Shown piece by piece: positions 3,714 through 22,375 of a stretch of DNA of 24,000 bases. The position numbers were made by a program, and so were the translations under genes. Source of the DNA: an uncultured Candidatus Saccharibacteria bacterium (GTDB taxonomy: Bacteria; Patescibacteriota; SICC01); the NCBI GenBank assembly GCA_964525455.1, contig CAZGHP010000011.1, forward strand, positions 336-24,335, written 5' to 3'. Position 1 is the stretch's first letter; each line of letters opens with the position of its first letter. Below the pieces are notes generated by a model. That model saw nothing but the letters and a program-made list of their open reading frames with translations, ran no database searches and was not told the DNA's origin.

Positions 3714-4925
3714 TCACGCCCGTGACAAACGCGCATCGATTGCCGCCTGGTACAGGGCGCGGGTACGCGGATCGACATCCGCCAACAGCGACTGCAGGAA
3801 TCCGCTCACGATCAGCCGCTCCGCGACCGTGCGGGAAAGTCCGCGGCTCATCAGGTAGAAGAGCTGCTCTTCGTCGAGCTGACCGACCGTCGCGCCGTGG
3901 CCGGCGATGACGTCGTCGGCGTCGATCTCGAGGCCCGGGATGGCATCCACGTGGGCACGTTCGGAGAGCAGCATGGCGTGGCCGTTCTGATCGGCCGCCG
4001 AGCCGTGCGCGCCCTTGGCGATCCGGATCATTCCGCGGTAGACGGCGCGCGCGGTATCGCGACAGACGCCGCGGGCGTAGGTGTCGGAGGTCGTCCTGCC
4101 GGCGGCGTGGTTGGCGACCAGCTCCTGCTCGAAGTGCTGCGCGGCGGAACCGAAGTAAATTCCGTGGACGTCGGTCTCCGCACCGGCGGCGACGAGCGCC
4201 GACTCCACGCTGACCTGGGAGAACGACCCTCCGAACGAACCCGCCAGCCAGTCCAGCCGGGCGTTCCGGCCGACCCGGCCGCGGTAGACGGCCAGGTCGG
4301 TGGCGGTGGCATCCCAATCCGCCAGGCTGCGATAGCTGAGCTTGGCGCCGTCCTCCACATATGCCTCGATGCCGCGGACAAGCACCGCCTCCCCGCCGCC
4401 GGTACCGTGTTCAAAGAGCTCCAGTTCGGCTCCTTCCTTCACGACGATTACGGTCCGGGAAGCACTGAGGCTTCCGGATTCGGCCGGAAACGAGAGATCA
4501 ACGACCGCCTTGGTGCCGGACGGAACCACTACTACGGCCCCGTCCTTCCAGAGCGCACCGGACAGCGCGGAGAAGTAGTGTGCCGCCACGGGCAACGCGG
4601 GGCCGAGGAGGTGCCCGGCGACGTGCTCGGGCCAATCATTCACGGCCTTCCGGAGCGAGACGCCCATCGGCTTGAACTCACCCTCGTACGAGCGGACGGC
4701 GACGTGCGGGGCCAACGTACCGATCGCTTTCCCTGCGAACCGCTCCGCGATGCCGTGACGTGCCCAGTTGGTGTACTTCTTGTCCGACGGCGGTGCGAGC
4801 CGCTCCAGTGCCCGGTACGCCGCGGTCCGCTTCTTCGCGAACGCTACCGGTTCGCGCGGCGTGAACCGCGGAATCGGAATAGTCGCAGATGCCACCCCGG
4901 AGACAGTTTGTCCAAGTGCTGTCAT
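3714..4925 (-). CDS. sufD: Fe-S cluster assembly protein SufD, 403 aa
   Basis: C-terminal SufB/D signature HGATVGQLDEEQLFYLMSRGLSRTVAERLIVSGF. Lies between the sufB/NUDIX genes and sufS. Confidence 0.85.
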   Translation of the reverse strand: MTALGQTVSGVASATIPIPRFTPREPVAFAKKRTAAYRALERLAPPSDKKYTNWARHGIAERFAGKAIGTLAPHVAVRSYEGEFKPMGVSLRKAVNDWPEHVAGHLLGPALPVAAHYFSALSGALWKDGAVVVVPSGTKAVVDLSFPAESGSLSASRTVIVVKEGAELELFEHGTGGGEAVLVRGIEAYVEDGAKLSYRSLADWDATATDLAVYRGRVGRNARLDWLAGSFGGSFSQVSVESALVAAGAETDVHGIYFGSAAQHFEQELVANHAAGRTTSDTYARGVCRDTARAVYRGMIRIAKGAHGSAADQNGHAMLLSERAHVDAIPGLEIDADDVIAGHGATVGQLDEEQLFYLMSRGLSRTVAERLIVSGFLQSLLADVDPRTRALYQAAIDARLSRA

Positions 4926-5344: not shown

Positions 5345-6756
5345 CCGACACTCCCCTCCATCTCCATCGCGATCAGCCGGTTGAGTTCGACTGCGTACTC
5401 CAGCGGCAGTTCCTTCACCACCGGCTCAATGAAGCCGTTCACGATCATCCCGACCGCCTCTTCTTCGGACAACCCGCGAGACATCAGGTAAAAGAGCTGT
5501 TCCTCGCCGATCCGGCCGACCGTCGCTTCATGCGAGACCGTCACTTTCGGCTCGTCCACCTCGATGTGGGGCAGTGTGTCGGAGACCGATTCGGCATCGA
5601 GGATCAACGCGTCGCACTGCACGTTGGCGACGGCGTTCCGCGCGCCGGGAATGATCTTGAGCAGTCCCCGGTAGGCCCCGCGTCCGCCGTCTTTCGAAAT
5701 CGACTTGGCGATCACCCGCGAGCTCGTGTCCGGCGCGAGATGGAAGACCTTGGCGCCGGTGTCCTTGTCTACTTTCCCGCAGGCCAACGCCACGTTCAGG
5801 TGTTCGGCCGACGCCCCGCGCCCGAGCAGCATCGAGCACGGATACAGCATCGTTACGCCGGAACCGAGGGAGCCGCCGACCCATTCTTGCCGCGCGTCCT
5901 GCTCGACCAGCGCCCGCTTGGTGTTGAGATTATAGACGTTCTTCGACCAGTTTTGGATCGTGGTGTAACGCGACTTCGCGGCGCGTTTGGCGAAGATCTC
6001 CACCACCGCGGAATGCAGTGACGCGGTCGAGTACAGCGGCGCGGTACAACCCTCGATGTAATGCACCTCGGCGCCTTCTTCGACGATGATCAGCGTGTGC
6101 TCGAACTGCCCCTGCCCGGATGCGTTCATCCGGAAGTACGTCTGCAGCGGCATCTCGACCTTGACGCCTTTCGGGACGTACACGAACGAACCGCCGCTCC
6201 AGACCGCGCCGTGCAGCGCCGCGAACTTGTTGTCCTGGGGCGGCACGCAGCGGGTCATGAAGTAGTCCTTTACCAGGTCGGGATATTCCCGTACCGCGTG
6301 GTCCATGTCACAGAAGATCACTCCCTGTTTTTCCCACGGCCGTTTGAGCGAGCGGTAGACCGTCTCGGAATCATACATTGCCACCACGCCGGAGAGGACG
6401 TCGCGTTCCGCTTCCGGGATCTTCAGCTTGTCGAACGTCCGCTTGATGTCTTCCGGCAGATCCTCCCAGCGCTGTGCGACCCGCTCCGTCGGGCGGAGAT
6501 AGTAGGTGAGCGCCTGGAAGTCGATGCCGGAAAGATCCGGTCCCCAAGTCGGGAGCGGCTTGGACTCGAAGATCTCGAACGAGCGCAATCGGTGCTCGCG
6601 CATCCAGGCCGGCTCGTTTTTCTGGTGCGAGATGTCCTCGACCGTCCGGCGGGTGAGGCCCTGGCGCGAACGGTACGTGTGCCGTTCCCGATCCTTGTGC
6701 CGGAACCGCTCAAGCCCGCTCTGTGCCGATGCGACGCTAGCCGTCTGGTCAGCCAT
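5341..6756 (-). CDS. sufB: Fe-S cluster assembly protein SufB, 471 aa
   Basis: Full-length ORF ending in the typical SufB C-terminus HEATVGRIGEEQLFYLMSRGLSEEEAVGMIVNGFIEPVVKELPLEYAVELNRLI. Confidence 0.92.
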   Translation of the reverse strand: MADQTASVASAQSGLERFRHKDRERHTYRSRQGLTRRTVEDISHQKNEPAWMREHRLRSFEIFESKPLPTWGPDLSGIDFQALTYYLRPTERVAQRWEDLPEDIKRTFDKLKIPEAERDVLSGVVAMYDSETVYRSLKRPWEKQGVIFCDMDHAVREYPDLVKDYFMTRCVPPQDNKFAALHGAVWSGGSFVYVPKGVKVEMPLQTYFRMNASGQGQFEHTLIIVEEGAEVHYIEGCTAPLYSTASLHSAVVEIFAKRAAKSRYTTIQNWSKNVYNLNTKRALVEQDARQEWVGGSLGSGVTMLYPCSMLLGRGASAEHLNVALACGKVDKDTGAKVFHLAPDTSSRVIAKSISKDGGRGAYRGLLKIIPGARNAVANVQCDALILDAESVSDTLPHIEVDEPKVTVSHEATVGRIGEEQLFYLMSRGLSEEEAVGMIVNGFIEPVVKELPLEYAVELNRLIAMEMEGSVG

Positions 6757-7633: not shown

Positions 7634-8494
7634 TCAGAACTTCGTCTTGCTGCTTACTTTGCCGTTCGTGAACGTAATGCTGACGAAGTCGCTTCCCGCG
7701 TAGTAGTTCCAGACCGCCGTCCGCGTACCGCCGATATCGCTCTCCGTCTTGTTATCCGGATCGCTGCCGGCCACGTCACTGACCTCGTCCATGGTCATCC
7801 CGTCCTTCACGCCATCGTAAATCCGCTGGATGTCCGTCACGCTCTGCTCATCGTTGCCGCCGGGCAGCGTATCCAGGTCGTAATCATCGTTCGTAGTGTT
7901 CCGGTCGGAAGTAACGTTCAGCACCAGCAGCAGCACGCCGACGATAATCACCGCGATCTCGCCTTTGCCGAACGGCGCCTCGGTGCCACCGACCTTGTCC
8001 CAGTATTCATTGAGTTTCTTGACCGCGAGTCCCAAGAAGACGTACTGCGAAACACCCGCCGCCAAGGCGAGCAGCAGGAAAAGCAGCAACCCGCCGATGG
8101 CGCCGCCGCCGAGGAGTCCGCTTGAGGTGGCGTCATTGTCCAGCGCCGCACCGATACCGCCCAACAGCGACACGAAGGCTCCGAACCCGACGACCATCGC
8201 CGCAGCGATCAGGATATAAGGAATCGCCACGTACCAGCCGGCTGGGAATGTCTCCAGTTGCTTGCCGCTCCGCGCCTGGTTGATGTCGCGGTACAGCCAG
8301 TAGAGGATGAACGCGTTGAGGATCGGCACGATCAGTCCGACCGTCTGCAGGCCGACGTTGTCATCCGTCTTCAGTTCGGACTTGAGCCGGCCCTTCGTGA
8401 CGTAGAACCAATAGAACAAATAAAGCCCGGACGTGACAATCGTAAGTCCGAGCACTCGAAGTACGCTGCGCTTTACTGCCTTGGTATCCACCAT
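7634..8494 (-). CDS. Membrane protein with N-terminal DUF4234-like region and C-terminal DUF3862-like domain
   Basis: DUF4234-type SGLYLFYWFY and ILYWLYRDIN motifs lie in TM segments. The C-terminus, TDIQRIYDGVKDGMTMDEVSDVAG...ISITFTNGKVSSKTKF, resembles DUF3862. ATG at 8494 is preferred (GGGGG 6 nt upstream) over the track GTG at 8506. Confidence 0.7.
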   Translation of the reverse strand: MVDTKAVKRSVLRVLGLTIVTSGLYLFYWFYVTKGRLKSELKTDDNVGLQTVGLIVPILNAFILYWLYRDINQARSGKQLETFPAGWYVAIPYILIAAAMVVGFGAFVSLLGGIGAALDNDATSSGLLGGGAIGGLLLFLLLALAAGVSQYVFLGLAVKKLNEYWDKVGGTEAPFGKGEIAVIIVGVLLLVLNVTSDRNTTNDDYDLDTLPGGNDEQSVTDIQRIYDGVKDGMTMDEVSDVAGSDPDNKTESDIGGTRTAVWNYYAGSDFVSITFTNGKVSSKTKF

Positions 8495-8552: not shown

Positions 8553-9146
8553 TCAACCGCGGATTCCCTGGAAGCGGTCCTCGACCACCTGCCAGTCCAT
8601 ATTGGCGAAGAAAGCCTCGATGTACTTGGGGCGGGCCGTCGAGAAGTCCGCGACGTACGAATGCTCATAGACGTCGAGCGCGACCACCGGGAACGCGTTC
8701 CAGACGGGAAACGTATTCTGGGCGTCACCGACCACGTTCATCAGCTTGCCGAAGTCCGTGTCCCACGCCGTCCAGGCCCAGCCGCGGCCTGCCATACCGG
8801 CGGCGGTGAGGTCGGCGGCGTAGTCGTCCCACGAACCGAAGTCCTGCTCGACCTGCTGTCTGAACGTGCCGTCCACCGGCGAACCGTCACCGCCGAGATG
8901 CCCGAAGTAGATCTCGTGGTTCTTGATGCCGCCGATCGCGAAGGTCAGGTCCACGGCCGCGGCCCGATAATCCGAGAAGACCTGGTTCGCTTTCGACTTG
9001 TCGGCCGCGGCCAAACGCGCGGATGCTTCACCATACTTCGCGCAATACGCTTCATAGAGTTTGTAGTGTGCCTGGACGGATTCTTTCGAGAACCCTTTCA
9101 GGCCGTCGAGTTTCGGATCGTAGGGTTTGGCTTGGTAGTCGGCCAT
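8553..9146 (-). CDS. Fe/Mn-family superoxide dismutase (divergent N-terminal helix motif), 197 aa
   Basis: SOD motifs GGIKNHEIYF, GWAWTAW and LDVYEHSYV (D and H ligands) are present. The N-terminal motif is AHYKLYEAY rather than HHxKHHxxY/HYGKHH. SD AAGGAGA lies 5 nt upstream of the ATG. Confidence 0.8.
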   Translation of the reverse strand: MADYQAKPYDPKLDGLKGFSKESVQAHYKLYEAYCAKYGEASARLAAADKSKANQVFSDYRAAAVDLTFAIGGIKNHEIYFGHLGGDGSPVDGTFRQQVEQDFGSWDDYAADLTAAGMAGRGWAWTAWDTDFGKLMNVVGDAQNTFPVWNAFPVVALDVYEHSYVADFSTARPKYIEAFFANMDWQVVEDRFQGIRG

Positions 9147-20004: not shown

Positions 20005-20099
20005 CGTCTCCTTCTCGAGGTCATGCTACATCAGATGCCGGGTGTGCCCGCGCGCATGAACGCTCCCGCCCCAAACCCACCAGGCTCTGGTTTCTCTTT

Positions 20100-20106
20100 C
20101 TTACTC
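20100..20106 (+). repeat. Left copy of the 7-bp direct repeat CTTACTC
   Basis: Identical heptamer at 21315-21321. This copy is the 5' strand of hammerhead stem III plus the cleavage-site C. Confidence 0.5.
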
Positions 20107-20152
20107 CATGAATGCGCGTTTATGCTGATGAGTCCGAAAGGACGAAAGTGAG
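20100..20152 (+). ncRNA. Hammerhead self-cleaving ribozyme motif, type III topology
   Basis: CUUACUC^CAUGAA-UGCGCG-UUUAUG-CUGAUGA-GUCC-GAAA-GGAC-GAA-AGUGAG. The full invariant core is present (CUGAUGA 20125-20131; GAA 20144-20146; A15.1-U16.1 = 20147/20105; C17 = 20106; G10.1-C11.1 = 20132/20143), enclosed by three correctly placed helices. Confidence 0.85.
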
Positions 20153-20195
20153 CTTGGGATAAAGACGATTTTAGCGGCGACGCTTCCATGACAAA

Positions 20196-20216
20196 AAGAG
20201 GCCGTATAAGCCTCTT
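20196..20216 (-). terminator. Intrinsic-terminator-like hairpin oriented on the minus strand
   Basis: AAGAGGC-CGTATAA-GCCTCTT (7-bp stem). On the minus strand the stem runs into TTTTTG (plus-strand A-run 20193-20197). It would block minus-strand transcription from the islet toward qor. Confidence 0.45.
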
Positions 20217-20316
20217 GCGAAACGTCCATGCCGGGCTCCCCAAAGCGTACTATGTTCGAACCGAAATTGGCGATCCTTTGCAGGTTTCTATATAAAAAAC
20301 ATGTAAGGTATGTCCT

Positions 20317-20628
20317 ATGGCTACAAAAGAAATTTCTGGCGGCACGGTACACAAACTGCCAGCCGATCTACGCAAGGCGTTGATTGCTGATCCAAAGGTG
20401 CTCGCTCTATGGGAAGACATTACTCCGCTCGCGCGTAATGAGTTTATCTGCTGGGTTGAGAATGCCAAACAGATTGAAACCAGGAATCGTCGCATCAAAA
20501 GAACGTGCGAAGAACTTCTCGAAGGAAAACGCCGGCCCTGCTGTTGGATTGGTTGCATCCACCGCACGGACAAGCCGCTAAGCCCCTCGGTGCGACGGGT
20601 GCTCGGTAAACAAGCTAAAAAGTCATAG
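20317..20628 (+). CDS. YdeI/OmpD-associated family protein, 103 aa
   Basis: LPADLRKALIADPKVLALWEDITPLARNEFICWVENAKQIETRNRRIKRTCEELLEGKRRPCCW matches the YdeI-type pattern. Low GC. AAGG lies 9 nt upstream of the ATG. Confidence 0.75.
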   Translation: MATKEISGGTVHKLPADLRKALIADPKVLALWEDITPLARNEFICWVENAKQIETRNRRIKRTCEELLEGKRRPCCWIGCIHRTDKPLSPSVRRVLGKQAKKS

Positions 20629-20643
20629 AAGCAAAAGGGTGTC

Positions 20644-21012
20644 ATGGCAAAACATCGGATCTACACAACGAGTGTCGCAAGGGTCTATCCATACTATGTT
20701 GCTAAGGCAGAGAAAAAGAGTCGCACAAAAACGGAAGTCGACGAAATTATTCGTTGGCTGACAGGATATAACCAGAAAGAGCTGGAAGCACAACTAGAAG
20801 AACAGACTGACTTTGAGACTTTCTTTGCAAAAGCTCCTCAGCTGAATCCGTCGCGAGCTTTGATTACAGGCGTAGTTTGCGGTGTCCGAGTGGAAGATAT
20901 CGAAGAACCGACCATGCAGGAAATTCGCTACCTGGATAAACTGATCGATGAGTTAGCGAAGGGTAAGACGATGGAGAAGATTTTGCGGAAGGAACCTAGA
21001 GGTGGAGCTTAG
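20644..21012 (+). CDS. DUF2200 domain protein, 122 aa
   Basis: [42 protein letters not shown]...[22 protein letters not shown] is the characteristic DUF2200 sequence pattern. SD AAGGG upstream. Confidence 0.8.
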
Positions 21013-21045
21013 TCCAGCTTCAGTAACGAAAATATAACGTTGCCC

Positions 21046-21083
21046 CAACGGTTAGCAACGTCATTGCAGCTGCTAACCCGTTG
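21046..21083. terminator. Hairpin between convergent genes (bidirectional terminator candidate)
   Basis: CAACGGTTAGCA (21046-21057) pairs with TGCTAACCCGTTG (21071-21083) with one bulged C and a 13-nt loop. Lies between the DUF2200 stop and the 62-aa gene stop. Confidence 0.45.
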
Positions 21084-21093
21084 CTTCCCTAGA

Positions 21094-21282
21094 CTAAGAT
21101 TTGTCGTTTAGGTACTTACCGGCAACACTGAGGGCAAACGAGGGCAGGATAACAAAAACAGTGGCAAACAGGAGCTTTGAAAGTATGTCATCATCCTTCG
21201 GCTGCGTCAGAACAACTAAAATTCCCAAAACGCCAAATACAACTGAAGCGTAGGTGAATATTCGCGTCGCTATCTTTTGCAT
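21094..21282 (-). CDS. Small two-TM membrane protein, 62 aa
   Basis: Two hydrophobic helices (YASVVFGVLGILVVL, LLFATVFVILPSFALSVAG). SD AGAGAGG lies 7 nt upstream of the ATG. Low GC. Confidence 0.55.
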   Translation of the reverse strand: MQKIATRIFTYASVVFGVLGILVVLTQPKDDDILSKLLFATVFVILPSFALSVAGKYLNDKS

Positions 21283-21314
21283 GATTGAACCTCTCTAGAC
21301 ATTAGTTGAAAGTA

Positions 21315-21321
21315 CTTACTC
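21315..21321 (+). repeat. Right copy of the 7-bp direct repeat CTTACTC
   Basis: Identical to 20100-20106. Separated by 1 nt from the encoded CCA end of tRNA-Asn. Confidence 0.5.
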
Positions 21322-21322
21322 T

Positions 21323-21397
21323 TGGCTCCGGAGGTCGGATTCGAACCGACGACCTTCGCGTTAACAGCGCGCTGCTCTACCGCTGAGCTACTCCGGA
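21323..21397 (-). tRNA. tRNA-Asn (anticodon GTT), 75 nt, with encoded CCA
   Basis: Minus strand reads TCCGGAG-TA-GCTC-AGCGGTA-GAGC-A-GCGCG-CTGTTAA-CGCGA-AGGTC-GTCGG-TTCGAAT-CCGAC-CTCCGGA-G-CCA. This gives a full cloverleaf, with anticodon loop CT-GTT-AA. Confidence 0.92.
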
Positions 21398-21421
21398 AAG
21401 TGCATGAGGCACTCTTAAAAG

Positions 21422-21427
21422 TATAAT
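21422..21427 (+). promoter_or_regulatory. Consensus -10 hexamer TATAAT, 6 nt upstream of the GTG start at 21434
   Basis: Reads aaaagTATAATggccatGTG. The overlapping minus-strand TATACT (21425-21420) could serve the divergent tRNA. Confidence 0.4.
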
Positions 21428-21433
21428 GGCCAT

Positions 21434-22375
21434 GTGCAGGAAACACACACCGGCCAAGACCACCACCGGCCGTCCGGGGCCGCCCGGAAGCAGCCCGGCC
21501 TGAAGCGCCAGTACTTCGTGGTAGCGCTGGTGGCGATCGGCATCTCGCTCCTGCTCTCGCCGCCGCGGCAGCCGGTGCACCGGACGGAGACCGCCCAGGC
21601 GCTAGCCGGTCTCCCGGAAGTCCGGTCGCAGGAAGCGCTGACGATCCGGATCGCCCAGACCCTCGGCGAAGGACACATCGGCATCGCCGCCAAGGACCTC
21701 CGGACCGGCGAAACGTTCGCGCTCGGCGCGGACGAGACGTTCGACGCCGCTTCCACCATGAAGCTCGTGATCGTGGGGTTCATGTACCACGAGGCCTCGA
21801 ACAACCGCTTCGACCTCGACGAAGTCCTCACGCTGTCGCCGGGCGAGATCCAGCCGTACGGCACCGGCACGATCCATCTGCAGCCGGCGCCGCACCGTTA
21901 CAGCTGGCGGGAGCTCGCGCGGCTGACGATGGAGAAGTCGGACAACACGGCCGCCTATGTGCTGGCTGCCCGGCTCGACAAGGCCAAGCTCCAGCGGTTC
22001 GCGGACGAGCAGGGACTGGCCGGCACTTCGATCGAAAGAAACGTCACGACCCCGCGTGACATGCTGCACTACCTGGAGCGGCTCTACGCCGGGCGGGTCG
22101 CCGACGAAGTCCTGACGGAAGAGCTCCTCGGTATCCTCGATGACAGCGACTTCGAGGAGCGCATCCCCGGACAGCTCCCCGAAGAGACGACCGTGTATCA
22201 CAAGACCGGCGACGCCTTCAACGGCGGCCAGCACGACGCCGGCATCGTCGTCTACGAAGGCCATCCGTACGTCGTGGCGATCTTCACCGAGCGCGTCACC
22301 GGCGACATCGGCCTCACCCGCACCAAGATCGCCGAGGCTTCGCGCGACATCTTCGCGTACTACTTGAACCGGTAG
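21434..22375 (+). CDS. Class A beta-lactamase-fold serine hydrolase with N-terminal membrane anchor, 313 aa
   Basis: SxxK (STMK), SDN (EKSDNTA) and KTG (YHKTGDA) motifs occur in the correct order. An N-terminal basic segment is followed by a TM helix. Confidence 0.8.
   Translation: MQETHTGQDHHRPSGAARKQPGLKRQYFVVALVAIGISLLLSPPRQPVHRTETAQALAGLPEVRSQEALTIRIAQTLGEGHIGIAAKDLRTGETFALGADETFDAASTMKLVIVGFMYHEASNNRFDLDEVLTLSPGEIQPYGTGTIHLQPAPHRYSWRELARLTMEKSDNTAAYVLAARLDKAKLQRFADEQGLAGTSIERNVTTPRDMLHYLERLYAGRVADEVLTEELLGILDDSDFEERIPGQLPEETTVYHKTGDAFNGGQHDAGIVVYEGHPYVVAIFTERVTGDIGLTRTKIAEASRDIFAYYLNR

Follow-up and report, generated by a model that had tools for sequence, protein, structure and literature searches.

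Results

A heptamer at both edges of a low-GC islet

Here we asked whether two copies of the heptamer CTTACTC, which stand at the two edges of a 1.2-kb islet of low GC content beside a tRNA-Asn gene in an uncultured Candidatus Saccharibacteria bacterium, are the traces of a single insertion or two unrelated sequences that happen to agree. The islet (positions 20100-21321) lies in a stretch of 24 kb, here called the window, which belongs to a genome of 0.79 Mb in 33 contigs (the genomes of our phylum sample range from 0.4 to 2.1 Mb). An earlier note on this DNA had likened the heptamer to a target-site duplication or an att core that would bound a single insert, and had read its left copy as the substrate strand of a hammerhead ribozyme whose cut would mark the end of the element, as in some eukaryotic retroelements. 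Analysis of the ribozyme, of its subfamily and of the same interval in related genomes pointed to a different answer, namely that the two copies are unrelated and match by chance, to which we assign a probability of roughly 0.78.

The heptamer occurs just twice in the window, at 20100-20106 and 21315-21321 and both times on the plus strand, and its right copy ends 1 nt from the CCA end of tRNA-Asn, a placement on which the sequence and ARAGORN agree. The direct repeat is limited to these 7 nt, with no longer match, the islet has no terminal inverted repeats, and its open reading frames (ORFs), which encode an OmdA-family protein, a DUF2200 protein and a 62-aa membrane protein, include no transposase, integrase or reverse transcriptase. 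On the repeat, the missing inverted repeats and the missing reverse transcriptase the earlier note was correct. In the case of base composition it was correct in part: the islet is indeed poor in GC (47%, against 64-66% in its flanks), but the repeats do not fall exactly at the composition boundaries, the sharpest steps lying at about 20085-20092 on the left and near 21445 on the right (windows of 300 nt). A lower GC content of the tRNA and of the promoter region that comes next blurs the right step and shifts it to this position.

Shuffled sequences shared a word of at least 7 nt at both edges in 3%, 9.5% and 18% of cases when a slack of ±10, ±20 and ±30 nt, respectively, was allowed, and 9.2% of random pairs of 47-nt windows taken from the islet did so as well. 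The previous estimate of a few percent at ±20 nt was therefore too low, and in this broad framing, with 9-10% expected at ±20 nt, the repeat is not beyond chance. Only with the ribozyme 7-mer fixed beforehand, a narrow question put post hoc that requires this exact word no more than 34 positions from the tRNA, does the probability fall to about 0.001.

The left copy within a predicted hammerhead ribozyme

The left copy lies inside a match to R1, a covariance model of a hammerhead subfamily that is described below (Table 1), and from its sequence we take the matching element to be a real type III hammerhead that would be expected to cleave itself. Between 20100 and 20152 it presents, in order, CUUAC (5' strand of stem III), U16.1, C17, stem I, the CUGAUGA core, stem II, GAAA and GUGAG (3' strand of stem III). 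Stem I is a hairpin of 6 bp (CAUGAA-UGCGCG-UUUAUG) and stem II one of 4 bp (GUCC-GAAA-GGAC), both being closed by their loops, and stem III (CUUAC/GUGAG, 5 bp) is open. The catalytic core is canonical throughout (CUGAUGA at 20125-20131, GAA and A at 20144-20147, and U at 20105, with the A15.1-U16.1 pair among the conserved features), and the cleavage-site residue H17 is C at 20106, hence not G, as hammerheads require. The assignment of the left copy to the 5' strand of stem III plus C17, to which U16.1 is to be added, agrees with the model, which was built without the window sequence and would also place the cut after C20106, between 20106 and 20107. Against the general hammerhead family of Rfam (RF00008) the element scores 20.2 and 25.8 bits, below the gathering cut-off of 48.5, and appears only as a sub-threshold local match at the E-value threshold. 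A single-sequence fold of 20095-20158 missed stem III (z-score 0.16), a result that is uninformative for a small ribozyme with non-canonical core pairs.

Of the seven bases of the left copy, five have to pair with GUGAG and the final two are dictated by catalysis, so that its sequence is explained without recourse to recombination. Cleavage of the right copy in trans would not be expected, because stem I is a closed hairpin and the UUGGCU that follows the right copy cannot pair with UUUAUG.

The R1 match is the only one in the window and in the genome, and no hammerhead of subfamily R1 was found in the same-genus relatives G003, G004 and G005; the hammerhead is unique within the genus, its subfamily being common in lower-GC relatives. 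No same-strand ORF precedes it (the ADH gene upstream is divergent), and metagenome scans with a 31-mer from the left flank and a 29-mer from the hammerhead gave no match. We think that the hammerhead was acquired laterally, and it may represent the tip of an older cassette that has been truncated.

A hammerhead subfamily in Patescibacteria records

The subfamily was searched for in one genome per prokaryotic species with a pattern that fixed only loop I, the core and stem II, and at least 119 stretches matched; all figures on instances given here come from among the matches listed. Most of these are in records titled Patescibacteria, Saccharibacteria or Parcubacteria, with a few metagenome-assembled genomes of Gammaproteobacteria, and they have in common a loop I of the form UGYGYR and a stem II of the form GUCC-N4-GGAC. 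Stems I and III were absent from the pattern and hence provide an independent test of the fold. All six pairs of stem I are formed in 85 of 87 instances, stem III has 3 to 8 pairs, and the dinucleotide before stem I is UC in 58, UU in 20 and UA in 9 of them, and never UG. In the alignment of 84 instances from which R1 was made, 97.9% of the stem cells hold standard pairs, against 33-44% when the partners are slid, and there are 395 cells with double changes, which affect 10 of the 15 pairs. With RF00008 the members score 35-46 bits, so that the subfamily with the window included ranges from 20 to 46 bits, all under the cut-off.

The strand that corresponds to the left copy is not conserved among these ribozymes. 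Stem III is freely variable (49 different 4-mers), the closest instance (L084, 89% identical over 57 nt) has CTTCACTC, and another (L115) has CTTACTC itself, paired with GTAAG; similarity of the window to the other loci of the family ends at the edges of the ribozyme. Nor do the members repeat this strand further along: the own 7-mer of each of the 87 ribozymes recurs within 3 kb at 0.077 per kb downstream versus 0.063 per kb upstream, reversed words, used as controls, had 8 and 12 hits, and the downstream copies present in 13 of the 87 are due in part to tandem pairs of ribozymes. There is no general tendency to duplicate the substrate strand at a distal boundary, and the proposal that the ribozyme acts as the end of a retroelement-like mobile element is unsupported on this count as well as in view of the absence of reverse transcriptase, transposase and integrase from the islet.

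In 59 of 79 cases the first ORF upstream of a member shares the strand of the ribozyme, its stop lying at a median of 66 nt from the ribozyme (interquartile range 46-108), and the next start is more loosely placed (median 130 nt), so that the hammerheads usually sit 30-110 nt past a same-strand stop or in an intergenic leader. The genes downstream are mutually unrelated. Seven of the loci fetched carry two subfamily hammerheads, placed around genes, and in three of them (L076, L077 and L102) both have an identical 5' strand of stem III. Members of the subfamily presumably cut their transcripts in cis, and the spacing from same-strand stops together with the loci of two ribozymes fits the transcript-processing role proposed for gene-flanking bacterial hammerheads (Perreault et al. 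2011, PMC3088659). Proximity to tRNA genes is only about twice that expected from genome density, which is no strong link. A full-text literature search returned no paper combining "hammerhead ribozyme" with "Patescibacteria", and the papers listed in a looser search contained no mention of hammerheads either.

A second type III subfamily, rich in GC, was observed in the genome of the window (G000); its 4-bp stem I is capped by AUA or AGA as loop, and it further has CUGACGAG and a stem II of great length. Its four copies (C1 ~98690-98745, C1 ~155515-155570, C13 ~21325-21380 and C17 ~4440-4500; L040-L043) sit between co-directional genes, and copies akin to them in G004 and G005 reach 29-34 bits against RF00008.

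The right copy in the trailer of tRNA-Asn

Read on the minus strand, tRNA-Asn is followed by AGAGTAAG..., then by the ribosome-binding site GAGAGG and the ATG of the 62-aa ORF, and the right copy falls in this segment. The same-genus genome G003 keeps the whole module of tRNA trailer and 62-aa ORF and has CTTACGC at the position of the right copy; it lacks a hammerhead, and CTTAC(G/T)C does not recur at the left boundary of its islet. G005 retains only ACTCT before the tRNA, in unrelated surroundings, and the sequences of G002 and G006 before the tRNA are unrelated to the window. As to the tRNA gene, CCA is encoded in G000, G002, G003 and G006, and tRNA-Asn is without encoded CCA in G004 and G005 (L029 and L028).

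One could suppose that a second hammerhead once stood here and was lost against the tRNA except for the right copy. Such an origin would have a precedent in the seven loci with two subfamily hammerheads, three of them sharing the 5' strand of stem III, and in the hammerheads described as flanking single genes (Perreault et al. 2011, PMC3088659). However, neither a CUGANGA nor a GAAA core follows the right copy, the tRNA beginning 1 nt later, R1 has its single match at the left copy, and G003, a genome without an R1-type hammerhead, conserves the sequence around the right copy. We regard this origin as extremely improbable.

Mosaic structure of the islet

Comparison with six same-genus genomes divides the interval into at least four pieces with different distributions. 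Alignments to the window extend over 20242-20984 in G005, 20251-20990 in G004, and 20521-20994 and 21093-22375 in G003. The OmdA and DUF2200 genes, with the sequence upstream of them from about 20242, are shared with G005 (80% nucleotide identity) and G004 (77%), and both genes are also present in G003; the islet proteins are 64-85% identical to their homologues, a divergence similar to that of the core genes in the flank (beta-lactamase fold and S9 peptidase, 69-81%). The segments 20100-20232 (hammerhead and minus-strand terminator) and 21013-21092 were found in this genome alone, and 21093-21322 is common only to G003 and the window. In the position behind DUF2200 at which a degenerate copy of the tRNA-Asn 3' end, to which we refer as the pseudo-tRNA element, is found in G003, G004 and G005, the window has a spacer (21038-21083). 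From the conserved ABC-2 genes to tRNA-Asn the content amounts to 1.2-6.2 kb and differs in all six genomes compared. In G006 a 186-aa gene stands directly beside tRNA-Asn, with no islet and no CTTACTC (the sequence reads ...caatacg before the tRNA), and in G003 the homologue of this gene is followed by the islet and then by the tRNA; G006 thus represents an islet-free configuration, and one without CTTACTC.

Judged from these sequence relationships, the interval is a mosaic of old modules and not one insertion, since a single insertion event with target duplication cannot give such a pattern. The view that the whole 1.2-kb islet is one mobile unit, with the heptamer as its duplicated target or att core and the hammerhead setting the 5' end of its RNA, could draw on the identical 7-mers at the two low-GC edges, the right one so close to the tRNA, on the predicted cleavage exactly at the junction between repeat and interior, on the value of about 0.001 obtained in the narrow framing, and on the reverse transcriptase that the same-genus G004 carries at the same hotspot, though this one belongs to a diversity-generating retroelement (DGR). 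It is contradicted by the composite nature of the interval, by the conservation of the right-hand sequence in G003 without hammerhead or left copy, and by G006, which lacks CTTACTC together with the islet; the subfamily shows no downstream excess of the 7-mer, the islet has neither reverse transcriptase, transposase or integrase nor terminal inverted repeats, and the broad framing puts the repeat at the 9-10% expected by chance. A single mobile unit is on these grounds highly improbable. Relatives with an uninterrupted site, which on the earlier proposal should have kept a single CTTACTC by tRNA-Asn, were not encountered either: G006 has none, G002 is unrelated, and G003 has CTTACGC at the tRNA side only, all of these being other species with other left flanks.

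The left flank of the window (ADH, GATase and transporter) is located elsewhere in G004 and G005, and the stretch from 15.1 to 20.1 kb is specific to this genome. This would be in keeping with an illegitimate recombination or deletion that joined the ADH region to the hotspot, the 7-nt identity being the microhomology left in the scar; moreover, the same-strand ORF that usually precedes such hammerheads is missing here, which suggests a truncation just upstream. Yet a deletion of this kind leaves one copy and not two copies 1.2 kb apart, and the left copy is needed for stem III and so is explained without recombination. We therefore consider a rearrangement scar very unlikely as the origin of the repeat.

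Homologues of OmdA and DUF2200 with 65-75% nucleotide identity to the window were also observed in distant families of the same phylum whose genomes have 45-50% GC (L005-L009: G046, G034, G008, G018 and G035), and these matches fit a lateral origin of the low-GC module in a genus of 65% GC. The promoter-like site of OmdA lies downstream of the hammerhead.

Degenerate tRNA ends around small cassettes

The homology of the window with G004 and G005 begins at its pseudo-tRNA element (20228-20275). Copies of this element are about 40-100 nt long, carry CCA in the best cases and have the orientation of the tRNA. In shuffle tests against the tRNA-Asn 3' end the window copy gave P = 0.007, a G004 copy P < 0.0002 and two G007 copies P of about 0.002; when the element was compared with all 45 tRNAs of the genome under stiff gap penalties, it was not above shuffles. 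The copies keep a single orientation and frame different cargo in the genus and its sister genus (L028/G005, L029/G004, L030/G003, L031/G002 and L049/G007): the pair OmdA-DUF2200 is enclosed by them in G004 and G005, as are a 192-aa membrane gene in G002 and a block of phosphatase, kinase-like and NUDIX genes in G007, and one further G004 copy stands on the far side of the DGR. A search for tyrosine recombinases, with serine recombinases outside it, found in each of five genomes one conserved member (PF00589), far from the locus, and Rfam has no family that matches the element.

Degenerate copies of a tRNA end around cassettes, with no integrase nearby, are the signature of integrase-less tandem accretion at a tRNA gene. 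The element at 20228-20275 is a more plausible candidate than CTTACTC for a boundary or recombination scar, and its sequence suggests that it may be the remnant of an att site. The hairpin at 20216-20196 is possibly the former terminator of tRNA-Asn, and on the reading of tandem accretion the hammerhead lies outside the last att-like repeat.

Two other roles for the element were rejected. Its copies in G007 differ by transitions and not by adenine-specific changes, and the cassette there has no reverse transcriptase, which argues against a template or variable repeat of a DGR; and a promoter or operator in general does not agree with the differing positions of the copies relative to genes. The DGR of G004 (L029, G004:C6 6699-9450) lies between DUF2200 and tRNA-Asn and comprises an RVT_1 reverse transcriptase, bAvd, a 136-nt repeat pair (8194-8329 and 8827-8962) and a long hairpin (7736-7841). 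At the left junction of the G003 islet (L030, oriented 6190-6215) there is a T-arm-like hairpin, CAGGG-GAATCGA-CCCTG, maybe another scar of a tRNA fragment.

Table 1. Features of the islet and of its right border, in window coordinates.
Feature	Position	Strand	Remarks
Type III hammerhead ribozyme (predicted)	20097-20155	+	Covariance model R1, 64.4 bits, E 1e-20
Left CTTACTC copy	20100-20106	+	5' strand of stem III (5 nt), U16.1 and C17
Intrinsic-terminator-like hairpin and T-run	20196-20216	-	12 nt beyond the end of the pseudo-tRNA element
Degenerate direct copy of the tRNA-Asn 3' end	20228-20275	-	T arm and acceptor strand, 5-nt T-loop insertion; candidate fossil att site or cassette boundary
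Promoter-like TTGGCG-16 nt-TATATA	20267-20294	+	Upstream of OmdA; conserved in the G004/G005 alignment; not returned by the consensus scan
OmdA/YdeI-family gene, 103 aa	20317-20628	+	PF13376, E 2e-19; amino acid identity 84-85% (G004, G005), 64% (G003)
DUF2200 gene, 122 aa	20644-21012	+	PF09966, E 6e-53; amino acid identity 80-84% (G003, G004, G005)
Spacer only in this genome	21038-21083		Minus-strand terminator-like hairpin 21050-21038; 12-bp bulged hairpin 21046-21083
62-aa ORF, two-helix membrane protein	21094-21282	-	Equal length in G003, 50 of 62 residues identical; no Pfam match
Right CTTACTC copy	21315-21321	+	Within the 3' trailer of tRNA-Asn; this trailer also serves as leader of the 62-aa ORF (minus strand)
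tRNA-Asn(GTT), CCA encoded	21323-21397	-	ARAGORN; Rfam tRNA, 70 bits

Discussion

Taken together, these results can be accommodated in a model in which the two copies of CTTACTC would owe their sequence to different functions. The left copy would be part of a functional-looking type III hammerhead, five of its bases pairing with GUGAG and the other two forming the cleavage dinucleotide U16.1-C17, and the right copy would be at once trailer of tRNA-Asn and leader of the conserved ORF of 62 aa. The interval of low GC content would then be a stack of modules at a variable hotspot beside tRNA-Asn, made up of the hammerhead with its terminator (20100-20232, in this genome only), the old OmdA-DUF2200 pair, the spacer (again in this genome only) and the small-ORF module. 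Serial site-specific integration at the tRNA gene, that is, tandem accretion without an integrase of its own, would leave copies of the tRNA end around the cassettes.

Several observations weigh against this model. If the ribozyme 7-mer is fixed in advance, P is about 0.001 for meeting it again at most some 34 nt from the tRNA end, and in that framing the coincidence is not trivial. The window's own pseudo-tRNA element is weakly tRNA-like (a 10-nt core and GGAGCC), and all copies carry the 5-nt insertion, a feature that is not accounted for by plain displacement of native tRNA ends; the tyrosine recombinase search of five genomes found no recombinase linked to the locus, and a consensus promoter scan upstream of the hammerhead found none. 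The species compared are some 20-25% diverged and are not alleles, so that an ancient duplication could have decayed in the relatives, and the left flank differs from that of all of them, there being no true empty site for this junction among the genomes compared.

One could go further and join the small integrase-less cassettes framed by tRNA-end-like repeats and the subfamily hammerheads in one cassette-exchange system of Patescibacteria at tRNA genes, in which the ribozyme would mark or process the cassette transcripts, possibly as a cassette end. In such a system the hammerhead of the window would be the last remaining tip of a cassette that is older and has been truncated. We consider this extension unlikely.

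Had the repeat proved to be target-site duplication and ribozyme substrate in one, it would have pointed to a bacterial mobile element of a new kind, and this was not upheld. What the locus offers instead is, first, a new and well-supported hammerhead of a very large subfamily that comes mostly from Patescibacteria records and escapes the Rfam threshold and, second, a clear example of a tRNA-Asn hotspot at which decayed copies of the tRNA end, with no integrase, surround small cassettes (OmdA-DUF2200, DGR, membrane and metabolic genes). It is also a reminder that a ribozyme stem may account for a short repeat better than transposition does.

Bacterial type III hammerheads are intergenic and often flank single genes in regions linked to prophages or integrases (Perreault et al. 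2011, PMC3088659; RF00008). The ribozyme of the window resembles them in its canonical core, its three helices with stem III open and its UH cleavage site, as well as in its intergenic place beside accessory genes, and its subfamily has varied neighbours and some loci of multiple copies. In contrast to the members of RF00008, the subfamily stays below the gathering cut-off, its stem II is fixed as GUCC-N4-GGAC and its loop I has the form UGYGYR; the window ribozyme has neither a prophage or integrase nearby nor a same-strand ORF before it.

Eukaryotic retroelements that carry hammerheads include the retrozymes and Penelope-like elements. Our case is similar to them in that a hammerhead borders a segment of deviating base composition whose two ends carry a short direct repeat; unlike them, the islet has no reverse transcriptase and no LTR-like repeats that bear the ribozyme, it is a mosaic, and its repeat is at chance level in the broad framing.

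A further likeness may be found in the genomic islands that grow by tandem accretion at the 3' ends of tRNA genes, among them the cis-mobilisable elements (CIMEs), which lack an integrase of their own and are reportedly known from work on ICESt1 and ICESt3 of Streptococcus thermophilus. The putative units found here differ from these in being tiny (~0.6-3 kb), in having degenerate repeats with a shared 5-nt T-loop insertion and in having no cognate integrase in the five genomes searched. In common with such islands, the cargo of the window stands directly at the 3' end of the tRNA with a partial direct copy of the tRNA end on its distal side and no recombinase in the units, and in the relatives multiple copies of the tRNA end frame different cassettes.

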